Positions 56,081 through 62,492 of a stretch of DNA of 64,000 bases are shown in pieces (the first letter of the stretch is position 1; each line of letters begins with the position of its first letter). Location of the stretch: positions 12,227-76,226 of the forward strand of contig CAVOML010000024.1 in NCBI GenBank assembly GCA_963697015.1, read 5' to 3'. A program made the translations under genes and the position numbers. This stretch comes from an uncultured Alphaproteobacteria bacterium. GTDB lineage: Bacteria; Pseudomonadota; Alphaproteobacteria; Rhizobiales; Xanthobacteraceae. The notes under the pieces were generated by a model, which searched no databases, was not told where the DNA came from, and saw only the letters and a list, made by a program, of their open reading frames with translations.

Positions 56081-56866
56081 TCATTTCTTCCCGTAGCTCA
56101 CGCCCATGCCGGCGCGCACATCGGCCTGGATGCCGTAGGGCGCGATCGGATAGCGCAAACCGTTTTTGGCGAGTTGCTTCATCCCCACGATGGCCTTCAC
56201 GAGGTGCTCCGGCCTGAGCGCCATTAGCATCTCCTCATCGGGCACGCCACCATAACGCCGCTCGGCAAAACACGGCAGCGAGAGCGACGGCTCACCGGTC
56301 TTCAGCGCCCGCCCCCACGAATCCGCGCACGCGGTCTCGCCGACCACACCCCATTCGAACTTCTTGTAGCCGGTATATTGCAGGCCATTGATCAGGATAA
56401 TCATCTGGCCCGGCGTCGCGTAGACGAGGCAAATGTCCGGCGGATTGAGCCTCCCGCTGGTAAGCGGACTCACCGCCATCGCCTGGTAGCGGCCAAACGG
56501 CACGACATCCAACGCCTCCTGCCGCTTGCGTGCATCTTCCGCGGTACCATGCCAGACGCCGACATAGTTCGCGCCCTCGAGCCATTTCTCATCCGTCGGG
56601 CTGAGGCCAATCACGGCGCGGCATTGCGCGCCCACGAGATCGTCTGCGGTGATGCCCACGGTCCAGCCGAGCCGCGAGGCCATGCTGACGATCTGGTCGG
56701 TGGTATGCACCGCATTCGGCCGGCGGATCTTCGGGATCGCCTCCATGTCCTCGACGCGGGCAAACATCTTGATGCCCGTGACCGTCGTCCTCAGGCGCAA
56801 CAGGCTGTTGAGATCGGCGACCATGCCGGCGAGATCGAATTGTTCCGGCGGTGTCTGCTGTTGCAT
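56081..56866 (-). CDS. DUF169-like protein
   Basis: QCRAVIGL, PPDICLVYATPGQM, ETACADSW, SLPCFAERRYGG..EEM; start MQQQTPP after GGAGA. Confidence 0.8.
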   Translation of the reverse strand: MQQQTPPEQFDLAGMVADLNSLLRLRTTVTGIKMFARVEDMEAIPKIRRPNAVHTTDQIVSMASRLGWTVGITADDLVGAQCRAVIGLSPTDEKWLEGANYVGVWHGTAEDARKRQEALDVVPFGRYQAMAVSPLTSGRLNPPDICLVYATPGQMIILINGLQYTGYKKFEWGVVGETACADSWGRALKTGEPSLSLPCFAERRYGGVPDEEMLMALRPEHLVKAIVGMKQLAKNGLRYPIAPYGIQADVRAGMGVSYGKK

Positions 56867-56959
56867 GGCGTTGTCTCCCAAAAGCGGCTTTGCGGTGATC
56901 CTAGTGCCGCCGCGACGCTCCGGGAAGAGTGTTCCGTGCCGGCAACGACAAGCGGCCAC

Positions 56960-57450
56960 GTTCCCGCGGCGGGATTCGCCCGGGTGATGCAGCAAGCGAG
57001 GCCCTCGAAAATCGAGAGGGCGCAGGGAATGCCGGATGCCGAAACGCACCCGCAGCCTTGCGTGCAAAATGGAAGAAAGCACGCACGCAAGTCGTGACAG
57101 GTACGCCGAACATTCCGGCATTCCCTGCGCAATGGTTTACGACTTATAGCGCGCTCTCCCCGGTGTCCGGGCTTTTTAGCCACCGTCGCCCGTGAAAGAA
57201 AGTCCACGGGCTTGATCCCAGCGTCGGGAGATCAGGACCACACGCCTTTGCCGTCCGCATCGGCAGCGTTCGTCAACTGCACCAATGCGTCCATCGCATC
57301 CCGCACCACGTTTCGTGACGATCTAGAAGCGCCCCTCTGTCGGCGCGGAATGGCACACCATATACACCCGATCGCGCGTTCTGAAAAACAGAATCTTTTT
57401 CATCGAAGGGCTTGACACGAATTCGGAAAATCAGCCCGTCGGGCAAATCA
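56960..57450. repeat. Long structured interspersed element of Bradyrhizobium type
   Basis: Perfect 17-bp inverted repeat GCGCAGGGAATGCCGGA (57020-57036) / TCCGGCATTCCCTGCGC (57114-57130) plus several nested hairpins; overlapping ORFs look non-coding. Confidence 0.7.
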
Positions 57451-57766
57451 GTTGGCGCGTGACGCCGCCGCGGCACGTTTTAAGGCGGCGAGTCCGAGAA
57501 TGGAATTCCGAGTCGCAGCGATGTATTGATCGTCCCCACCTGTGCTCTGAATTCACTTCCGCCTTCGGCGGTACAGCGGACGTAGCTGGACTCGCTGCTG
57601 GCTTGACCCGGTCCAGAATGACCCAACTCGGACATCGGGCGTGACCGAACAGCAGCCCGTCCTGCTTTGATTTGGGGTTATCGCAGAATCTGTCCAGACC
57701 CTGTACGCTAAGGGCTCATGCGTTCGGTCGGCGTCCATGTTCGACGTTGAGACGAGGCGGGGAAGC

Positions 57767-59125
57767 ATGCGTCTTGTTCTGAAGATGTTCAAATTTCTTG
57801 TCGCGATTGTGCTTCTCGGGATTTTGGGGTTCAGCGGCTGGCTAACCTTCAGCCCACCCGATGGGCTGCTGTCCGCCTCGGCCTATGCGGCAAAAATGGT
57901 CTGCTCAAACGTGTTCATTGCCAAACGCGACGCGACTGCGGTCATTGGAACCGACGTGGAGTTTGCACTTCCTCGTATCGTCAAACGTATGAAAATCAAC
58001 GTGGACACCGCCAACCAGCGTGTCGGGGTGGCATATTTAGGCCTGTTTGCCAAACGCTACGCCCAATATGAGGGGGGACGCGGTTGCACATTGGTCTCAA
58101 AGAACGAAATCCCCCACCGCGCCGCGCCGCCTTTGCCCCCAGCAACGTCTGACGCGCTCTGGCCGGCTGGCGCGAGGGTACAATTATCCGACGACAAGCG
58201 TTTGCTGGCAGCGCTGAACGATCCGGCTCTCCAGGGACCCGGCATGCGCGCGATCGTCGTGGTCCATGACGGGCGCATTGTCGGCGAGACCTATGGCGAA
58301 GGCTTCGACGCTTCGACGCCCTTACTCGGCTGGTCGATGACGAAGACCGTGAACGCTGCCCTGGCCGGCATGGCGATCAAGGACGGAAAGCTTTCGCTGG
58401 ATCAGAAGAATCTGTTTCCGCAATGGGCCGGCGACGCGCGCGCGGAGATCTCGGTGGCCGATTTGATGGCCATGACAAGCGGATTGGAATGGAATGAAGA
58501 TCAGGGCAATTCTCCCGACCCTGGACCATTGGAGAATCTTGCAAGGGATGCGGTGGCTTTCGCGAGGGACCGCGCGCTTGTCACCCCGCCTGGAACGAAA
58601 TTCAATTATTCCGGCGGTTCGTCCGTCCTATTGGCGCGGCTCTGGCAGAACGCGATTGGAGCGGAAGCGCGAGCTTATCCGCAAGAGCGATTGTTCAAGC
58701 CTTTGGGCGTGACCAGCGCTGTTCTCGAATCCGACCCTTCAGGCACGTTCCTTGGAGAAGGGTTTCTCTACGCCAATGCGCACGATTGGGCGCGCTTCGG
58801 CGAATTGTTGCGCCTGGACGGAGAATGGAACGGCGAACAGCTTTTGCCGATGGGCTTCGTCGATTACATGCGTTCGCCCGTGCCAGCGTCCGACGAGGGA
58901 CATGGCCCGGTCTACGGTCGCGGAGGGGTTTGGTTGGCGCGGGGCGAAGGATTCAACCTCCCTGCCGACACCTTCATGTTGCAAGGGCACCTCCGCCAGG
59001 TGATCGCGATCATTCCCTCGCGTAAACTGGTGATCCTGCGCATGGGTTTAACGCGGGAAGATATTGGGTACAGCGTCGCGAAACTGCTGTACGCGATTGT
59101 CGCGGCGCGCCGATCGAATAAATGA
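57767..59125 (+). CDS. Serine hydrolase, beta-lactamase class C-like, N-terminal membrane anchor
   Basis: SxxK motif WSMTKT, LMAMTSGL, FNYSGG, ARFGEL. Confidence 0.9.
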   Translation: MRLVLKMFKFLVAIVLLGILGFSGWLTFSPPDGLLSASAYAAKMVCSNVFIAKRDATAVIGTDVEFALPRIVKRMKINVDTANQRVGVAYLGLFAKRYAQYEGGRGCTLVSKNEIPHRAAPPLPPATSDALWPAGARVQLSDDKRLLAALNDPALQGPGMRAIVVVHDGRIVGETYGEGFDASTPLLGWSMTKTVNAALAGMAIKDGKLSLDQKNLFPQWAGDARAEISVADLMAMTSGLEWNEDQGNSPDPGPLENLARDAVAFARDRALVTPPGTKFNYSGGSSVLLARLWQNAIGAEARAYPQERLFKPLGVTSAVLESDPSGTFLGEGFLYANAHDWARFGELLRLDGEWNGEQLLPMGFVDYMRSPVPASDEGHGPVYGRGGVWLARGEGFNLPADTFMLQGHLRQVIAIIPSRKLVILRMGLTREDIGYSVAKLLYAIVAARRSNK

Positions 59126-59267
59126 TGCGATTACTTCCGCGATTGTGAAGGTTTGCGGATGTTGGCCCCATGAATTCGCGAAGGCCAGAGCTTAGCCGTG
59201 CTGAATTTGCTTTGTTCAAGGAGGTCGGCTACGAATGAGCAAAGGGCAGGACGACTTGGGAGGGGAC

Positions 59268-59672
59268 ATGTCCAGCACGGGCTATGCATTGACAGGCTTC
59301 GTCTCGTGGGCGCTCCTTCTGCTGGTAATGATGGAAGCCATCCGAACTCATTTTGTCGTGACCGGAAAGGTCGCGGCCAACGCCTTCACGCCAGACAACT
59401 CCGGATTATCGCCCTTCATGCAGCGCCTCGCCCGCGCGCATGCCAATTGCATCGAAGGTCTGCCAATTTTCGGTGGCTTGTTGGCGATTGCCATCATGAC
59501 ATCAAAAACAGGAATCACGGACCCTCTGGCGCTTTGGCTTCTTGGCGCAAGGATCGTGCAGTCGACTATCCATCTCGCCTCGACCAGTCCGGTAGCAGTA
59601 AGTCTCCGCTTCGCCGCTTTCGCCGTCCAGATGGCGATTGGTGTCTATTGGTCATGGAAGCTGATGGTCTAA
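59268..59672 (+). CDS. MAPEG-family membrane protein
   Basis: RLARAHANCIEGLPIF, ARIVQSTIHL; RBS GGAGGGG. Confidence 0.88.
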   Translation: MSSTGYALTGFVSWALLLLVMMEAIRTHFVVTGKVAANAFTPDNSGLSPFMQRLARAHANCIEGLPIFGGLLAIAIMTSKTGITDPLALWLLGARIVQSTIHLASTSPVAVSLRFAAFAVQMAIGVYWSWKLMV

Positions 59673-59688
59673 GGATTTGGCCAAGTAG

Positions 59689-60504
59689 CTATTTGGCTTT
59701 GCCGTCCCTGGCATTCACCGCCACGGAAGCCTCGCTCGTCAGCAACAGGAACGTGAACGTCTCCTGCAGATAGAGCCGCACCTTCTTGTCATCGTGGCTG
59801 AGATAGCCGATCGACACGTCCTCGCCGATATGCAGGGCGAAATCGCCGCCGCGCGTCGTCAGCACGAACGCGCCTGAGATTGCCGGCGCCCAGATGATCT
59901 CGCCGTCCACGAGCTCCCTGATGTGCTGCATGACGGGATGGCCGTGGTCGCTGCTCTCGCTCAGCTTTGTGTAGGCGTCCGCCCCGAGCAACACCGAATA
60001 GGGGCCGTTGACGCCCTCGAGGCGCAACTGGCTGAGCGCGTGCGCGATGACGTCGGGATAGGCGCGCACGTCTGACGGCAGCGTGAGGATCGGATTGCTG
60101 GTGCCCTCACGGATGCCGCCGATGCCGGCGGCGGCATATCCGTCGAAGATGGCCCGATCCTCGGCGAAGGCCAGAATCTTCGCAGCGTCTTTCGCGGGCT
60201 GCCAGTCGGAATCCTCGGCGCCGCGCTCGACGTCATCGATCTGCTGGCGACCGAGCTCGAAGGGAACGCGCAGCTCGACCAGCGGCTTGACCTCGCGCTG
60301 CCGCGCCAGGATTCCGTCTCCGGGCGCCTTGAGGTTCTGCAAATGGCCCGTGCCGATGGCGGAAAGCGCCGTACCGCCGGGCCCCTCCACGTCGACGACG
60401 CGCCGCCCGGCCAGATAGCGCTTGAGGGTGCGCGAGGTCTCTTCCTCGATCTCAGCCCAGGCCTCATCCGATATCGGGGCAAGCTCACGGTGAAGGTTAT
60501 TCAT
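59689..60504 (-). CDS. Family 1 encapsulin shell protein (linocin M18-like)
   Basis: MNNLHRELAPISDEAWAEIEEE, RRVVDVEGP, FAEDRAIF, GGDF.L.IG.D.SIGY.SH, YLQETFTF. Confidence 0.95.
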   Translation of the reverse strand: MNNLHRELAPISDEAWAEIEEETSRTLKRYLAGRRVVDVEGPGGTALSAIGTGHLQNLKAPGDGILARQREVKPLVELRVPFELGRQQIDDVERGAEDSDWQPAKDAAKILAFAEDRAIFDGYAAAGIGGIREGTSNPILTLPSDVRAYPDVIAHALSQLRLEGVNGPYSVLLGADAYTKLSESSDHGHPVMQHIRELVDGEIIWAPAISGAFVLTTRGGDFALHIGEDVSIGYLSHDDKKVRLYLQETFTFLLLTSEASVAVNARDGKAK

Positions 60505-61574
60505 GAGGCGGGGTCTCCTTTGAGCGAACCAATGTCGAGCGAGCCTTTGCGTTTTGGCGACGCCGTTGGCGCGGGCGCTGCATCAGCGGGCTCGTCCGGA
60601 ACCGCCGCGGCCGGCTCGTCGCCCGCGACGTTGTCGAGGAAGGTCGCCGACGGCACGAAGAACAGATTGCCGGTCCTGGCCACGCTGAAATCGAGCAGGC
60701 GGTCGTAATTGCCGGGCGGCCGGCCTACGAACATGTTCTCCAGCATCTGCTCGATGGTTCGCGGCGAACGCGCATAACCGATGAAATAGGTGCCGAACTC
60801 GCCCTCGGCGACGCGGCCAAACGGCATGTTGTCGCGGACGATCTTCATCTCCTTGCCGCCCTCTTCGATGATGGTGAGCGCGTTATGCGCGCAAGAGGGC
60901 TTTGTGGCGTCGTCGAGCTCGATGTCGGAAAGCTTGCCGCGGCCGATGATGCGCTCCTGGGTTTCCGTCGACAGCGCGTTCCAGCCGCCCATGTCGTGCA
61001 GATATTTCTGCACGATCACATAGCTGCCGCCGGCGAAGGCAGCGTCCTCGTCCCCGATATAGGCGGCGGCGTTCGCGGCTTGCGCCGTCGGGTTCTCGGT
61101 GCCATCGACGAAGCCGAGCAGGTCGCGGTCGTCGAAATAGCGAAAGCCATGCACCTCGTCGACTGCGGTCACGGCATCACCGAGCTTCGCCATGATCTGG
61201 GTCGCGAGCTCGAAGCACAAATCCATGCGCCTGGCACGAATGTGAAACATGAGATCGCCCGGCGTCGCCACCGCATGGCGCGGGCCGGCCTTGATCTCCT
61301 TGAACGGATGCAGCTCCGCTGGACGCGCTCCGCCAAACAGCCGGTCCCAGGCGTCAGATCCGATCCCCATCACGCAGGACAGATTTCCCTCGATGTCGCG
61401 GAAGCCAACGGCGCGCAACAGCCCCGGGAGGTCACCGCAGAACGACCGGACCGCCGTGCGGCTCGCGCTGCCGGGATTGATGGTCGCAACCAGGAAGATC
61501 GCGGCGCGCGTCAAGGCCCCGACCACCGACTGGGAATCGGGGGGCTGCCCGGATGGCGCAGGCGGTGCATTCAT
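60501..61574 (-). CDS. Dye-decolorizing peroxidase (DyP), encapsulin cargo
   Basis: GFVDGTENP (GxxDG), IVQKYLHD, proximal His in AHNAL, RDNMPFG; C-terminal targeting peptide GSLDIGSLKG. Confidence 0.95.
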   Translation of the reverse strand: MNAPPAPSGQPPDSQSVVGALTRAAIFLVATINPGSASRTAVRSFCGDLPGLLRAVGFRDIEGNLSCVMGIGSDAWDRLFGGARPAELHPFKEIKAGPRHAVATPGDLMFHIRARRMDLCFELATQIMAKLGDAVTAVDEVHGFRYFDDRDLLGFVDGTENPTAQAANAAAYIGDEDAAFAGGSYVIVQKYLHDMGGWNALSTETQERIIGRGKLSDIELDDATKPSCAHNALTIIEEGGKEMKIVRDNMPFGRVAEGEFGTYFIGYARSPRTIEQMLENMFVGRPPGNYDRLLDFSVARTGNLFFVPSATFLDNVAGDEPAAAVPDEPADAAPAPTASPKRKGSLDIGSLKGDPAS

Positions 61575-61682
61575 CGGATCGCCCCTGCCGGTCGCGCCCT
61601 GTCAACAGAAGTCATCGATGATGCGTCCAATCTCCACGAATTGACCTAACACTGTAGCGGCGGCCCGTCTTTCGTCTACGCA

Positions 61683-62492
61683 CTAATTTGTGGACGCGGG
61701 TCCTGGAAACAGCTCGTCGGTCCGTCCCGTCAGGCGATAGGCAATCAGCCCCAGCCATTCCCGCACCGCCAGATTGGTGTACTCAAGGCCATCCTCCGAT
61801 TGGATCGGAAAATGCGTGAGGTCCTTCTCTCCCGCAAGCCGCCAGTCGACGGGACATGGCTCAACCGCAAAGCCCACTTTCCGGAAAATCCCGACCGAGC
61901 GCGGCATGTGGAAGGCCGAGGTCACGAGCAGCCAGCGCTCGCCGGGTTTTGGATCGGCGAGCTTCTTCGAAAATTCCGCGTTCTCGAACGTATTGCGCGA
62001 CTCCCGCTCGATGATGAGCCGCTCTTTGGCAATGCCAAGGCCCTCAAACACCTTTGCGGCGTAATCGGCTTCCCTGGCGGAAGTGTCGTTGAGGTAATTG
62101 GCGCTGCCGCCGGAATAGAGGATGCGCGCGTTCGGAAAGCGATGCGCCAGCATGGCCGCGGAGATGATGCGGCCGGCCGAATTGGAGAACACCGCTTCGC
62201 CATGGGCGGCGGACGGATCGGCATCGATCCCGCCTCCGAGCACGACAATACCGTCGGGCGCGCCGTGCGAGGCGTCCCAGGGCGGAAAGCGCGACTCCAG
62301 CGGATACATCAGGAGACTTCCAACCGGCGTGAATCCGCAAATTGCGAACAGCAGCGCCGACGCAACCAGCAGTCCGCGGCCGAGCTTCGCCCATCGTGTC
62401 AGGAGCAGGAGCACGCCGAGCAGGCCGAGCTCGATCAGAAGATTGATCGGCAGCAGCATGATGCCGAGCGTCTTGGAGAAGGCGAAAAACAA
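61683..62492 (-). CDS. YdcF/DUF218 family membrane protein
   Basis: IVVLGGG, SRNTFENA, LVTSAFHMPRS. Confidence 0.9.
   Translation of the reverse strand: MFFAFSKTLGIMLLPINLLIELGLLGVLLLLTRWAKLGRGLLVASALLFAICGFTPVGSLLMYPLESRFPPWDASHGAPDGIVVLGGGIDADPSAAHGEAVFSNSAGRIISAAMLAHRFPNARILYSGGSANYLNDTSAREADYAAKVFEGLGIAKERLIIERESRNTFENAEFSKKLADPKPGERWLLVTSAFHMPRSVGIFRKVGFAVEPCPVDWRLAGEKDLTHFPIQSEDGLEYTNLAVREWLGLIAYRLTGRTDELFPGPASTN

Follow-up and report, generated by a model that had tools for sequence, protein, structure and literature searches.

Could an accessory gene on a bacterial chromosome be bracketed by the recombination sites of a cassette system that is not an integron? This question is raised by a serine hydrolase gene lying between two similar palindromic sequences (dyads) in a stretch of 64,000 nt, hereafter the window, from an uncultured alphaproteobacterium of the Xanthobacteraceae (GCA_963697015.1, contig CAVOML010000024.1, positions 12,227 to 76,226 of the forward strand). 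The source genome (G000) amounts to 6.9 Mb in 26 contigs with a G+C content of 62.6%, and the window corresponds to C24:12227-76226. A preliminary description, made from the letters of the window alone, regarded the dyads as copies of one site and as the borders of an integron-like gene cassette, which might be shuffled by an undescribed system acting in trans. We find that the two dyads are of different composition. The explanation that we consider probable is that they derive from 28-bp palindromic units (PUs) used by mobile elements as landing sites, that the right dyad retains the stump of an IS91-type insertion sequence (IS), and that the locus is a patchwork of acquired genes and not a set of integron-like cassettes.

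Composition of the two dyads

The left dyad reads ACTTCCGC-N13-GCGGACGT (57555-57583), and the right one reads ACTTCCGC-N14-GCGGATGT (59133-59162) and begins 7 nt past the TGA stop codon of the hydrolase gene (59123-59125). They are 29-30 bp long with arms ACTTCCGC/GCGGAYGT, and each has one mismatch within the 8-bp arms. The motif TGACCC-N4-CGGACAT, of which the genome contains three copies in total, is located at 57619-57635, and TGGCCC follows the right dyad at 59163-59168. All positions and features named in the preliminary description are present. The A/T-richer composition that it noticed for the hydrolase gene and the adjacent MAPEG gene is also real, because the G+C content falls to 0.55-0.60 across 57400-59800, against 0.63-0.69 on both sides. 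It was right, too, that the arms lack the integron core GTTRRRY, as confirmed from their sequences, and that the window contains no recombinase: neither PF00589 nor any other recombinase gene was found there, the closest PF00589 match on the contig being 8 kb past the window end.

Is the likeness of the two dyads a coincidence? The joint pattern was defined post hoc, and the six occurrences of the 8-mer ACTTCCGC by itself, where 3.0 are expected in the window, are no enrichment. However, the joint pattern, found twice in the window, is absent from all of 100 dinucleotide-preserving shuffles, and each half comes from a well-populated sequence family, memberships which already contradict chance. 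Coincidence is therefore extremely unlikely, and the suspicion that these are not chance sites stands: they are members of a dispersed palindrome family that adjoins accessory genes. A third genomic copy of the joint pattern (C21:113786-113814) lies 10 nt past the stop codon of a gene ending in ...ADEVIE. A reversed control pattern gave two matches, which we read as chance.

The palindrome family was found through this third copy and the TGACCC motif. The canonical PU is ATGTCCGCTTT-N6-AAAGCGGACAT, for example ATGTCCGCTTT-GTGCCA-AAAGCGGACAT, that is, 11-bp arms around a 6-bp centre. One subfamily has the left arm ACTTCCGC, with which both dyads begin. With no more than four mismatches, 21 PUs were found in the source genome and none with two control patterns; with no more than five, the numbers are 42 and 2-7, respectively. 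Searching with exact arms gave PUs in 21 of 61 genomes of the genus, Bradyrhizobium (0-8 in each), and, across the order, in 8 of the 111 genera sampled; the controls had no match in either case. The recurring centres are GTGCCA/TGGCAC, TGACCC/GGGTCA and ACCCCC, and PUs are often paired at a distance of about 45 nt. The PU appears to be a low-copy intergenic repeat of Bradyrhizobium and other Rhizobiales, similar to repetitive extragenic palindromes (REPs) and bacterial interspersed mosaic elements (BIMEs), and it would fold as a hairpin in single-stranded DNA or RNA. We found no description of the PU sequence in the literature, where the motif strings gave no relevant paper. The densest group seen consists of 11 PUs within 14 kb at a contig end (C6:271047-284833, locus L110), which divide blocks of one to five accessory genes with low G+C at third codon positions: cation efflux, OmpR/TPR regulator, methyltransferase, MFS, truncated aminotransferase, histidine kinase and ABC substrate-binding protein. 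Close by is what remains of an integrase catalytic domain, which forms an in-frame fusion with a dehydrogenase.

What, then, is the right dyad? In eight Bradyrhizobium orthologues of the hydrolase gene, a PU-like arm, ACTTCCG(C/G)..(T/G)TGGCCC, starts 6-10 nt past the stop codon, and five of the eight read ...TTTGGCCC. The right arms of these PUs vary (GCGGACAT, CGGATCT, CGGACCT, GCGAAGT in two cases, GCGACAT, or none), and the DNA beyond them is unrelated. Neither the spacer of the window's right dyad nor its arm GCGGATGT occurs in any of the eight orthologous loci, so the right dyad, proposed as a cassette border, is absent as such from all of them. Its left part (59133-59145, forward strand), which consists of the PU left arm ACTTCCGC and GATTG, would have been inherited with the hydrolase gene. 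The remainder has another source. The intact end of an IS91-family element, downstream of its transposase gene, reads TGTGAAGGTTTTCGGATGCCGGCCCCATGAAGG, and the window at 59144-59174 (forward strand) reads TGTGAAGGTTTGCGGATGTTGGCCCCATGAA, identical at 28 of 31 positions and divergent afterwards. Therefore, the right dyad is the hydrolase gene's own PU left arm joined to a 31-nt IS stump, a truncated end downstream of tnpA (putative oriIS) that is among the 27 such end motifs of the genome. By the same comparison, GCGGATGT and TGGCCC come from the element. The right arm of the left dyad is a PU arm and that of the right dyad an IS end, which means that the two dyads are not the equivalent borders that had been proposed.

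The missing half of this PU may also be preserved. The 13-nt sequence TTTGGCCAAGTAG (59676-59688, forward strand), between the MAPEG gene and the encapsulin stop codon, resembles by eye the PU GGTTTGGCCCTTGCGAAGTAGC of the orthologous locus L078 if a 6-nt gap is allowed. With low confidence, it is possibly the leftover centre and right arm of the original PU 3' of the hydrolase gene. This is a weak hint; if correct, a PU would have received 59144-59679 as an inserted unit.

It might be argued that the dyads are passive REP-like hairpins, stabilising mRNA 3' ends or serving as processing signals, inherited with their genes, the right dyad having formed without any mobile element. The PU shortly after the stop codon in the eight orthologues is what such hairpins would look like, as is the third copy of the pattern at C21:113786, and REPs of other sequence families are known from Bradyrhizobium 3' untranslated regions (PMC5082802). 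However, this explanation is contradicted for the right dyad, whose spacer and right arm correspond to the IS91-type end and are missing from the orthologous loci. In addition, neither dyad is followed by a T-tract, and their fold z-scores range from -1.27 to +0.84, as for hairpins of ordinary stability. We consider this explanation improbable.

The left dyad belongs to a larger structure, a mosaic repeat of about 95 nt (57540-57636, forward strand), which is composed of PU1, a conserved linker and a degenerate PU2. PU1 is the left dyad itself (57555-57583, forward strand), identified by pattern match and by alignment of the copies, with the consensus ACTTCCGC-N13-GCGGACAT. PU2 (57610-57635, forward strand) contains TGACCC-N4-CGGACAT, which forms its centre and right arm (57619-57635, forward strand). 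Two further copies of the stretch 57553-57635 exist in the source genome, and BLAST matches to the repeat were found in 36 of 81 genomes of the genus. The alignment of 23 copies has a mean column identity of 74% and the consensus AATGCTCTGAATTyACTTCCGCTTTCGGCGGCAyAGCGGACATGGCCGGACTTGCTGCTGGCTCGACCCGGTCGCGAATGACCCAAnnCGGACAT. The window and eight of nine Bradyrhizobium orthologous loci have kept the centre and right arm of PU2 ahead of the hydrolase gene (-110 to -190); some of these loci also retain remnants of the linker, and the sequence farther upstream is unrelated. The left dyad is outside the block common to the orthologous loci, which does not support it as the border of a cassette either. 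One copy of the mosaic repeat, at C22:591776-591856, lies 9 nt past a conserved gene of 524 codons, exactly where synteny with 50 relatives ends; 3' of it is an extra NmrA-like gene with a paralogue at C3:322073.

Other identities were considered for the mosaic repeat. A structured RNA or riboswitch was rejected, since there is no consensus fold, the single-sequence folds are ordinary and Rfam gave no match at E <= 1 in 56500-60000. A miniature IS91-type derivative was rejected as well, the inner parts being unlike IS ends (shuffle p = 0.35-0.99). Could the palindromes instead be operators, bound by a dimeric transcription factor that has the flanked genes under its control? The perfect 11-bp inverted arms, the frequent pairs about 45 nt apart and a sequence conserved without conservation of an RNA fold are all consistent with protein binding. 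However, many copies are located directly past stop codons or between convergent genes, their distance to start codons is not fixed, and the coding strand has no promoter-like site overlapping the dyads. No common function was found among the genes 3' of the mosaic repeat, which are unrelated to each other. An operator role is thus very unlikely.

Elements located in the palindromic units

A search for tyrosine recombinases brought up the element to which the stump belongs, a multi-copy IS of 2.56 kb, of which an intact copy is located at C16:463984-466549. Its transposase has the domains PF04986 (E 2.6e-67) and PF14319 (E 9.5e-34) and scores 426.9 bits (cut-off 125) with NF033538, "IS91 family transposase". 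Upstream of the transposase gene is a gene for a 292-aa tyrosine recombinase of the Xer/IntI type (PF13495 and PF00589), whose top NCBIfam match is the integron-integrase subfamily TIGR02249, with 200.2 bits in two stretches, below the cut-off of 265.

Where is this element inserted? The ori-type end motif occurs 27 times in the source genome, and nearly all occurrences are preceded by sequence like the PU left arm, such as cacttccggctt, gatgtctgctgc and gatgtccgagtt. For the other (ter) end, GAGCGGTTTAGTCC, 121 genomes of the genus gave 46 occurrences, distributed over 22 genomes. In about 41 of the 46 cases, by our count, it is followed by NNTG, a PU centre (GCAC, ACCC or GCCC) and a right arm like CGGACAT. 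Three copies of the element are 99.8% identical with quite different flanks. In one of these copies, the sequence on one side is complementary to that on the other, and a variant on one side is compensated on the other (TCTGCTTT/AAAGCAGA, a TCTGC/GCAGA change). The flanks are, accordingly, target PUs and not termini of the element. Within a PU, the element would insert after the left arm and before the centre.

The anatomy of these junctions may agree with that of the IS91 family, whose members prefer CTTG/GTTC target tetranucleotides; here, NTTG precedes TGAAGG at nearly all junctions, which would fit this preference, although the termini can be placed only to within about 2 nt. In one copy, different tetranucleotides adjoin the two ends, and no target duplication is seen there. 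Rolling-circle transposition without inverted repeats or target duplication, and the ability to carry neighbouring DNA if termination fails, have been described for this family (PMC5714925). Like IS91 and ISCR elements, the present one has a Y2 HUH transposase with a zinc-binding N-terminal domain (NCBIfam equivalog). It also appears to lack terminal inverted repeats, with no direct target repeat seen at the examined copy and one end abutting NTTG. It differs from them in the upstream gene for the Xer/IntI-like tyrosine recombinase and in being almost confined to one 28-bp palindrome family, and at the hydrolase locus only the 31-nt stump by the MAPEG gene is present. A copy of this element is also located 107 nt downstream of the hydrolase gene in strain LMG 9283.

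Hairpin mini-elements of about 76 nt were also observed (C2:35558-35633, C16:195110-195185, C16:199603-199678 and C26:3308-3383). Each is composed of two inverted IS91-type end motifs (TGTGAAGGGTTTCGGATGCCGGCC ... GGCCGGCGTCCGAAAGCCTCCAAA), and some at least abut sequence like the PU left arm; they may be non-autonomous derivatives.

A second and unrelated element occupies the PUs at another position. From position 57621 on, the window has 100% identity with three Logan contigs, each from a different run, which differ from it upstream, and their 57 nt before this junction match C25:14824-14880 of the source genome at 94.7%. Read on the minus strand, the latter is the 5' end of a group II intron (GTGCG...; RF02003, 101.9 bits; RF00029, 37.1 bits). 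Therefore, other strains carry an intron in the PU2 centre, between 57620 and 57621, where the minus strand reads 5'-ATGTCCGAGTTGGGT directly followed by GTGCG. The junction TGTCCG-N3-6-GGGT directly followed by GTGCGCC (N4 in all but one) was found 41 times in 24 of 201 genomes of the genus, while the control gave none. All 11 inspected 5' exons are similar to AATGTCCGCTnnGGGT, and ten of them had been picked independently of the PU pattern. These junctions point to a group II intron family that homes into the PU centre, between GGGT and CA, across the genus. The conserved target positions reach to about -14, which suggests pairing of intron-binding site 2 (IBS2) as well as IBS1. An intron copy without an open reading frame (ORF) is located at C25:14100-14880 (L132:5101-5881, minus strand), inserted after ATGTCCGAAAAGGGT, and a longer copy with an ORF-sized insert (C26:4508-6176) adjoins another PU.

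Group IIC-attC introns and palindrome-homing introns are likewise retroelements that, in many genomes, always occupy the same position of a repeat able to form a hairpin, and the present family shares the hallmarks of group II homing, that is, the same position at independent loci, a GUGYG 5' end and a D1-D6 RNA. The difference is that the target is the PU instead of an attC site or a terminator.

How do the PUs compare with known extragenic palindromes? Like REPs and BIMEs, they are short intergenic imperfect palindromes, often paired or mosaic, directly past stop codons and occupied by ISs in a site-specific manner. The size and setting of this class (20-40 bp, extragenic, mosaic clusters) are matched by the 28-bp PUs, the pairs of about 45 nt and the 95-nt two-unit mosaic. 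The PUs, however, are occupied by a rolling-circle element of the IS91 family, of which no member is known to us among the ISs that target REPs. Enterobacterial BIMEs, for example, are targets of IS1397 and ISKpn1 (Tobes and Pareja, 2006, as cited in PMC5082802). Two REP families are defined by their GTAG and CGTC tags (PMC3733652), neither of which the PU carries, and Br-REP1 and Br-REP2 of Bradyrhizobium (PMC5082802) differ from the PU in sequence.

Landing sites or cassette borders

Taken as landing sites, the PUs allow the history of the locus to be put as follows. The hydrolase gene would have come in with two PU sequences, one in its leader and another past its stop codon. An IS91-type element would then have entered the 3' PU, and a later deletion would have left its 31-nt stump joined to the MAPEG gene. 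In other strains, the group II intron would reverse-splice into the PU centre. PUs would then serve at least two unrelated elements, the rolling-circle IS as well as the retro-homing intron, as a common landing pad, which would also explain why they recur at the synteny breaks of Bradyrhizobium, that is, at points where genomes stop matching.

Several observations weigh against this explanation. The IS stump is short, and the ori and ter ends of the element were assigned by analogy with ISCR and IS91. The PUs number about 20-40 per genome, far fewer than classical REPs, for which more than 100 are expected. Genes for a Y1 transposase (PF01797), which could link the PUs to REP-associated tyrosine transposases (RAYTs), are present in the genome, and none is flanked by PUs, so that a REPtron was rejected. 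The hairpins are, as mentioned above, of ordinary stability, and RNAalifold gave only -0.96 kcal/mol for the 23 copies of the mosaic repeat, essentially without covariation; thus the sequence is conserved and the fold is not. An uninterrupted PU at the orthologous empty site was found for no IS or intron copy, so we infer insertion into PUs from the anatomy of the junctions. The positions of the source genome that match the hydrolase loci L078 and L079 contain other REP types, and the one that matches L076 contains no recognisable palindromic repeat. Finally, homology is lost sharply at PU centres on both sides of the hydrolase gene in several species, which would also fit recombination at PUs, a process that the above history does not require but is compatible with. 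As to the Y1 transposase genes, one of the IS200/IS605 type (C21:11648-12007) is located 2 kb from a copy of the mosaic repeat and beside IS91-type end motifs (C21:12524-12615), with no PU flanking the gene itself.

Could the PUs then be hairpin recombination sites of a cassette-like system? Modules such as the hydrolase and MAPEG genes would be exchanged at PU centres by a tyrosine recombinase, perhaps that of the IS91-type element, and hybrid PUs would be left at both borders, as with integron attC cassettes or the pdif modules of Acinetobacter. The canonical PU indeed has the 11-6-11 layout of tyrosine-recombinase core sites, and the top NCBIfam match of the element's recombinase is to integron integrases. 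In addition, the block common to the Bradyrhizobium loci extends from a PU centre and right arm to a PU left arm and centre, with unrelated DNA outside and variable outer arms; a PU right half is located 60-105 nt upstream of the MAPEG orthologues in two other genomes (G124 and G201); the C22 copy of the mosaic repeat is exactly at a synteny break before an accessory gene; and the eleven PUs at C6:271-285 kb divide small gene blocks beside an integrase remnant.

However, the recombinase scores below the cut-off for IntI (200 against 265), and the locus has neither a GTTRRRY core nor an array. The borders that could be mapped against empty sites, those of the islet that contains the hydrolase gene in the window (against four relatives) and of a 2.77-kb insert with a 75-bp duplication in L075, both fall away from the palindromes, contrary to the prediction that presence/absence breakpoints would coincide with the dyads. 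The sole crisp junction at a PU centre proved to be that of the group II intron. Recent mobility of the hydrolase gene was rejected too: all six other contigs that carry the identical protein have one and the same gene order, so the expected mobility of the gene is not seen at this locus. Remnants of the mosaic repeat upstream of several orthologues suggest gradual decay instead of a sharp crossover. Exchange through such a cassette-like system is accordingly unlikely, and for PU-mediated exchange of gene modules as a whole our estimate is about as low or somewhat lower.

Comparison with the systems that served as models leads in the same direction. Integron cassettes likewise have imperfect palindromes right after the stop codons of single accessory genes, and the recombinase profile here is IntI-like. 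However, the attC sites of integrons are 57-141 bp long with an R''-L''...L'-R' structure and a GTTRRRY core, none of which applies to the dyads; the PUs measure 28 bp, and no array with an attI/Pc platform exists here. As the integron breakpoints would be in the sites, while the borders of the islet and of the L075 insert are off the palindromes, the locus does not behave as an integron in this respect either. The pdif (XerC/XerD) modules of Acinetobacter plasmids are closer in form, with 28-bp sites of 11-6-11 layout that bracket modules of one or two genes in varying contexts, but the PU setting is chromosomal and no module was seen to move. No resemblance of the PU to the dif consensus was recognised, although the two were not aligned.

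In short, an integron-like gene cassette system, which would call for attC-like structure, the core, an array and an integron integrase, fails its defining tests. The wider suspicion, that a recombinase encoded elsewhere acts on these sites in trans, has proved correct. The co-occurrence with a specific recombinase in trans that had been anticipated does exist, since an IS91-family element with an HUH transposase and a Xer/IntI-like tyrosine recombinase sits in the PUs.

These two enzymes allow one more form of exchange to be envisaged, which we rate as slightly less likely still than the cassette-like system. PUs would act, when folded, as single-strand attachment sites, and the element's recombinase would act on the single-stranded circles of rolling-circle transposition and recombine them at the PU centre. 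Small cargo may then also enter any PU, for example the 536-nt unit of ori stump and MAPEG gene (59144-59679). If true, this would be a chromosomal, integron-independent cassette mechanism that couples an HUH transposase with a tyrosine recombinase.

Returning to the PUs as landing sites, which we prefer, two consequences may be noted. The role of the accessory tyrosine recombinase in some IS91-family elements becomes testable, since the 28-bp target defined here is built like a tyrosine-recombinase site. For genome annotation, caution is needed, because half-palindromes and IS stumps beside accessory genes mimic cassette borders.

The islet and its genes

The hydrolase gene is part of a mosaic islet of about 4.7 kb (~56930-61650) between two genes that are adjacent in relatives. 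The left flank is a DUF169 gene (56081-56866, minus strand; PF02596, E 1.5e-39), kept at 81-87% DNA identity in all 24 same-genus sample genomes, and the right flank is a DUF218/ElyC-like gene (61683-62492, minus strand; PF02698 in L126; NCBIfam ElyC, 122.6 bits, below the cut-off). In four relatives (G041, G046, G012 and G011) these two genes are only 56-270 bp apart, from which the extent of the islet follows; the spacers contain no palindrome of the PU family, and the outer borders of the islet are not at PUs.

At the left edge of the islet is a dispersed non-coding repeat of about 500 nt (56948-57452), with more than 50 copies of 70-84% identity in the source genome, all of which end in ...CGTCGGGCAAATCAG; it is also numerous in relatives. 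The leader of the hydrolase gene contains a small hairpin with a T-rich tail (57651-57666, forward strand), the sole terminator-like site in 57400-59750, whose sequence is retained in L071, and similar hairpins are present in L075, L077 and L078.

The hydrolase (57767-59125, forward strand) belongs to the beta-lactamase family of serine hydrolases (PF00144, E 2e-28) and probably starts at the ATG at 57767, which gives 452 aa. Its N-terminus is hydrophobic, with a predicted membrane anchor, and no NCBIfam equivalog was found, the top match scoring 85 bits where the cut-off is 800. The distribution of orthologues (identity of at least 65%) is patchy and includes about ten Bradyrhizobium species, Tardiphaga, Bosea, one Rhizobium and several metagenome-assembled genomes. 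The MAPEG-family membrane protein gene (59235-59672, forward strand; PF01124, E 2.2e-15) has orthologues in 3 of 200 genomes of the genus, in none of which it is beside the hydrolase gene, and by this distribution it appears to have been acquired separately.

The right part of the islet is an inverted operon for an encapsulin (Linocin_M18) and a DyP peroxidase (59689-61574, minus strand; PF04454, E 7.4e-98; PF20628 and PF04261). The orthologous operon is located at other positions in five relatives (G012, G006, G024, G007 and G011), where no PUs flank it, and the operon was therefore rejected as a PU module.

A different arrangement is found in B. japonicum SZCCT0153 (L075:2780-5549), where the hydrolase gene is carried by the 2.77-kb insert together with an unannotated upstream ORF of about 230 codons. 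This insert is flanked by a direct duplication of about 75 bp, derived from the 3' end of the neighbouring gene, and its border is not at a PU. The source genome has a dehydrogenase gene at the corresponding spot (C23:67282-68279).

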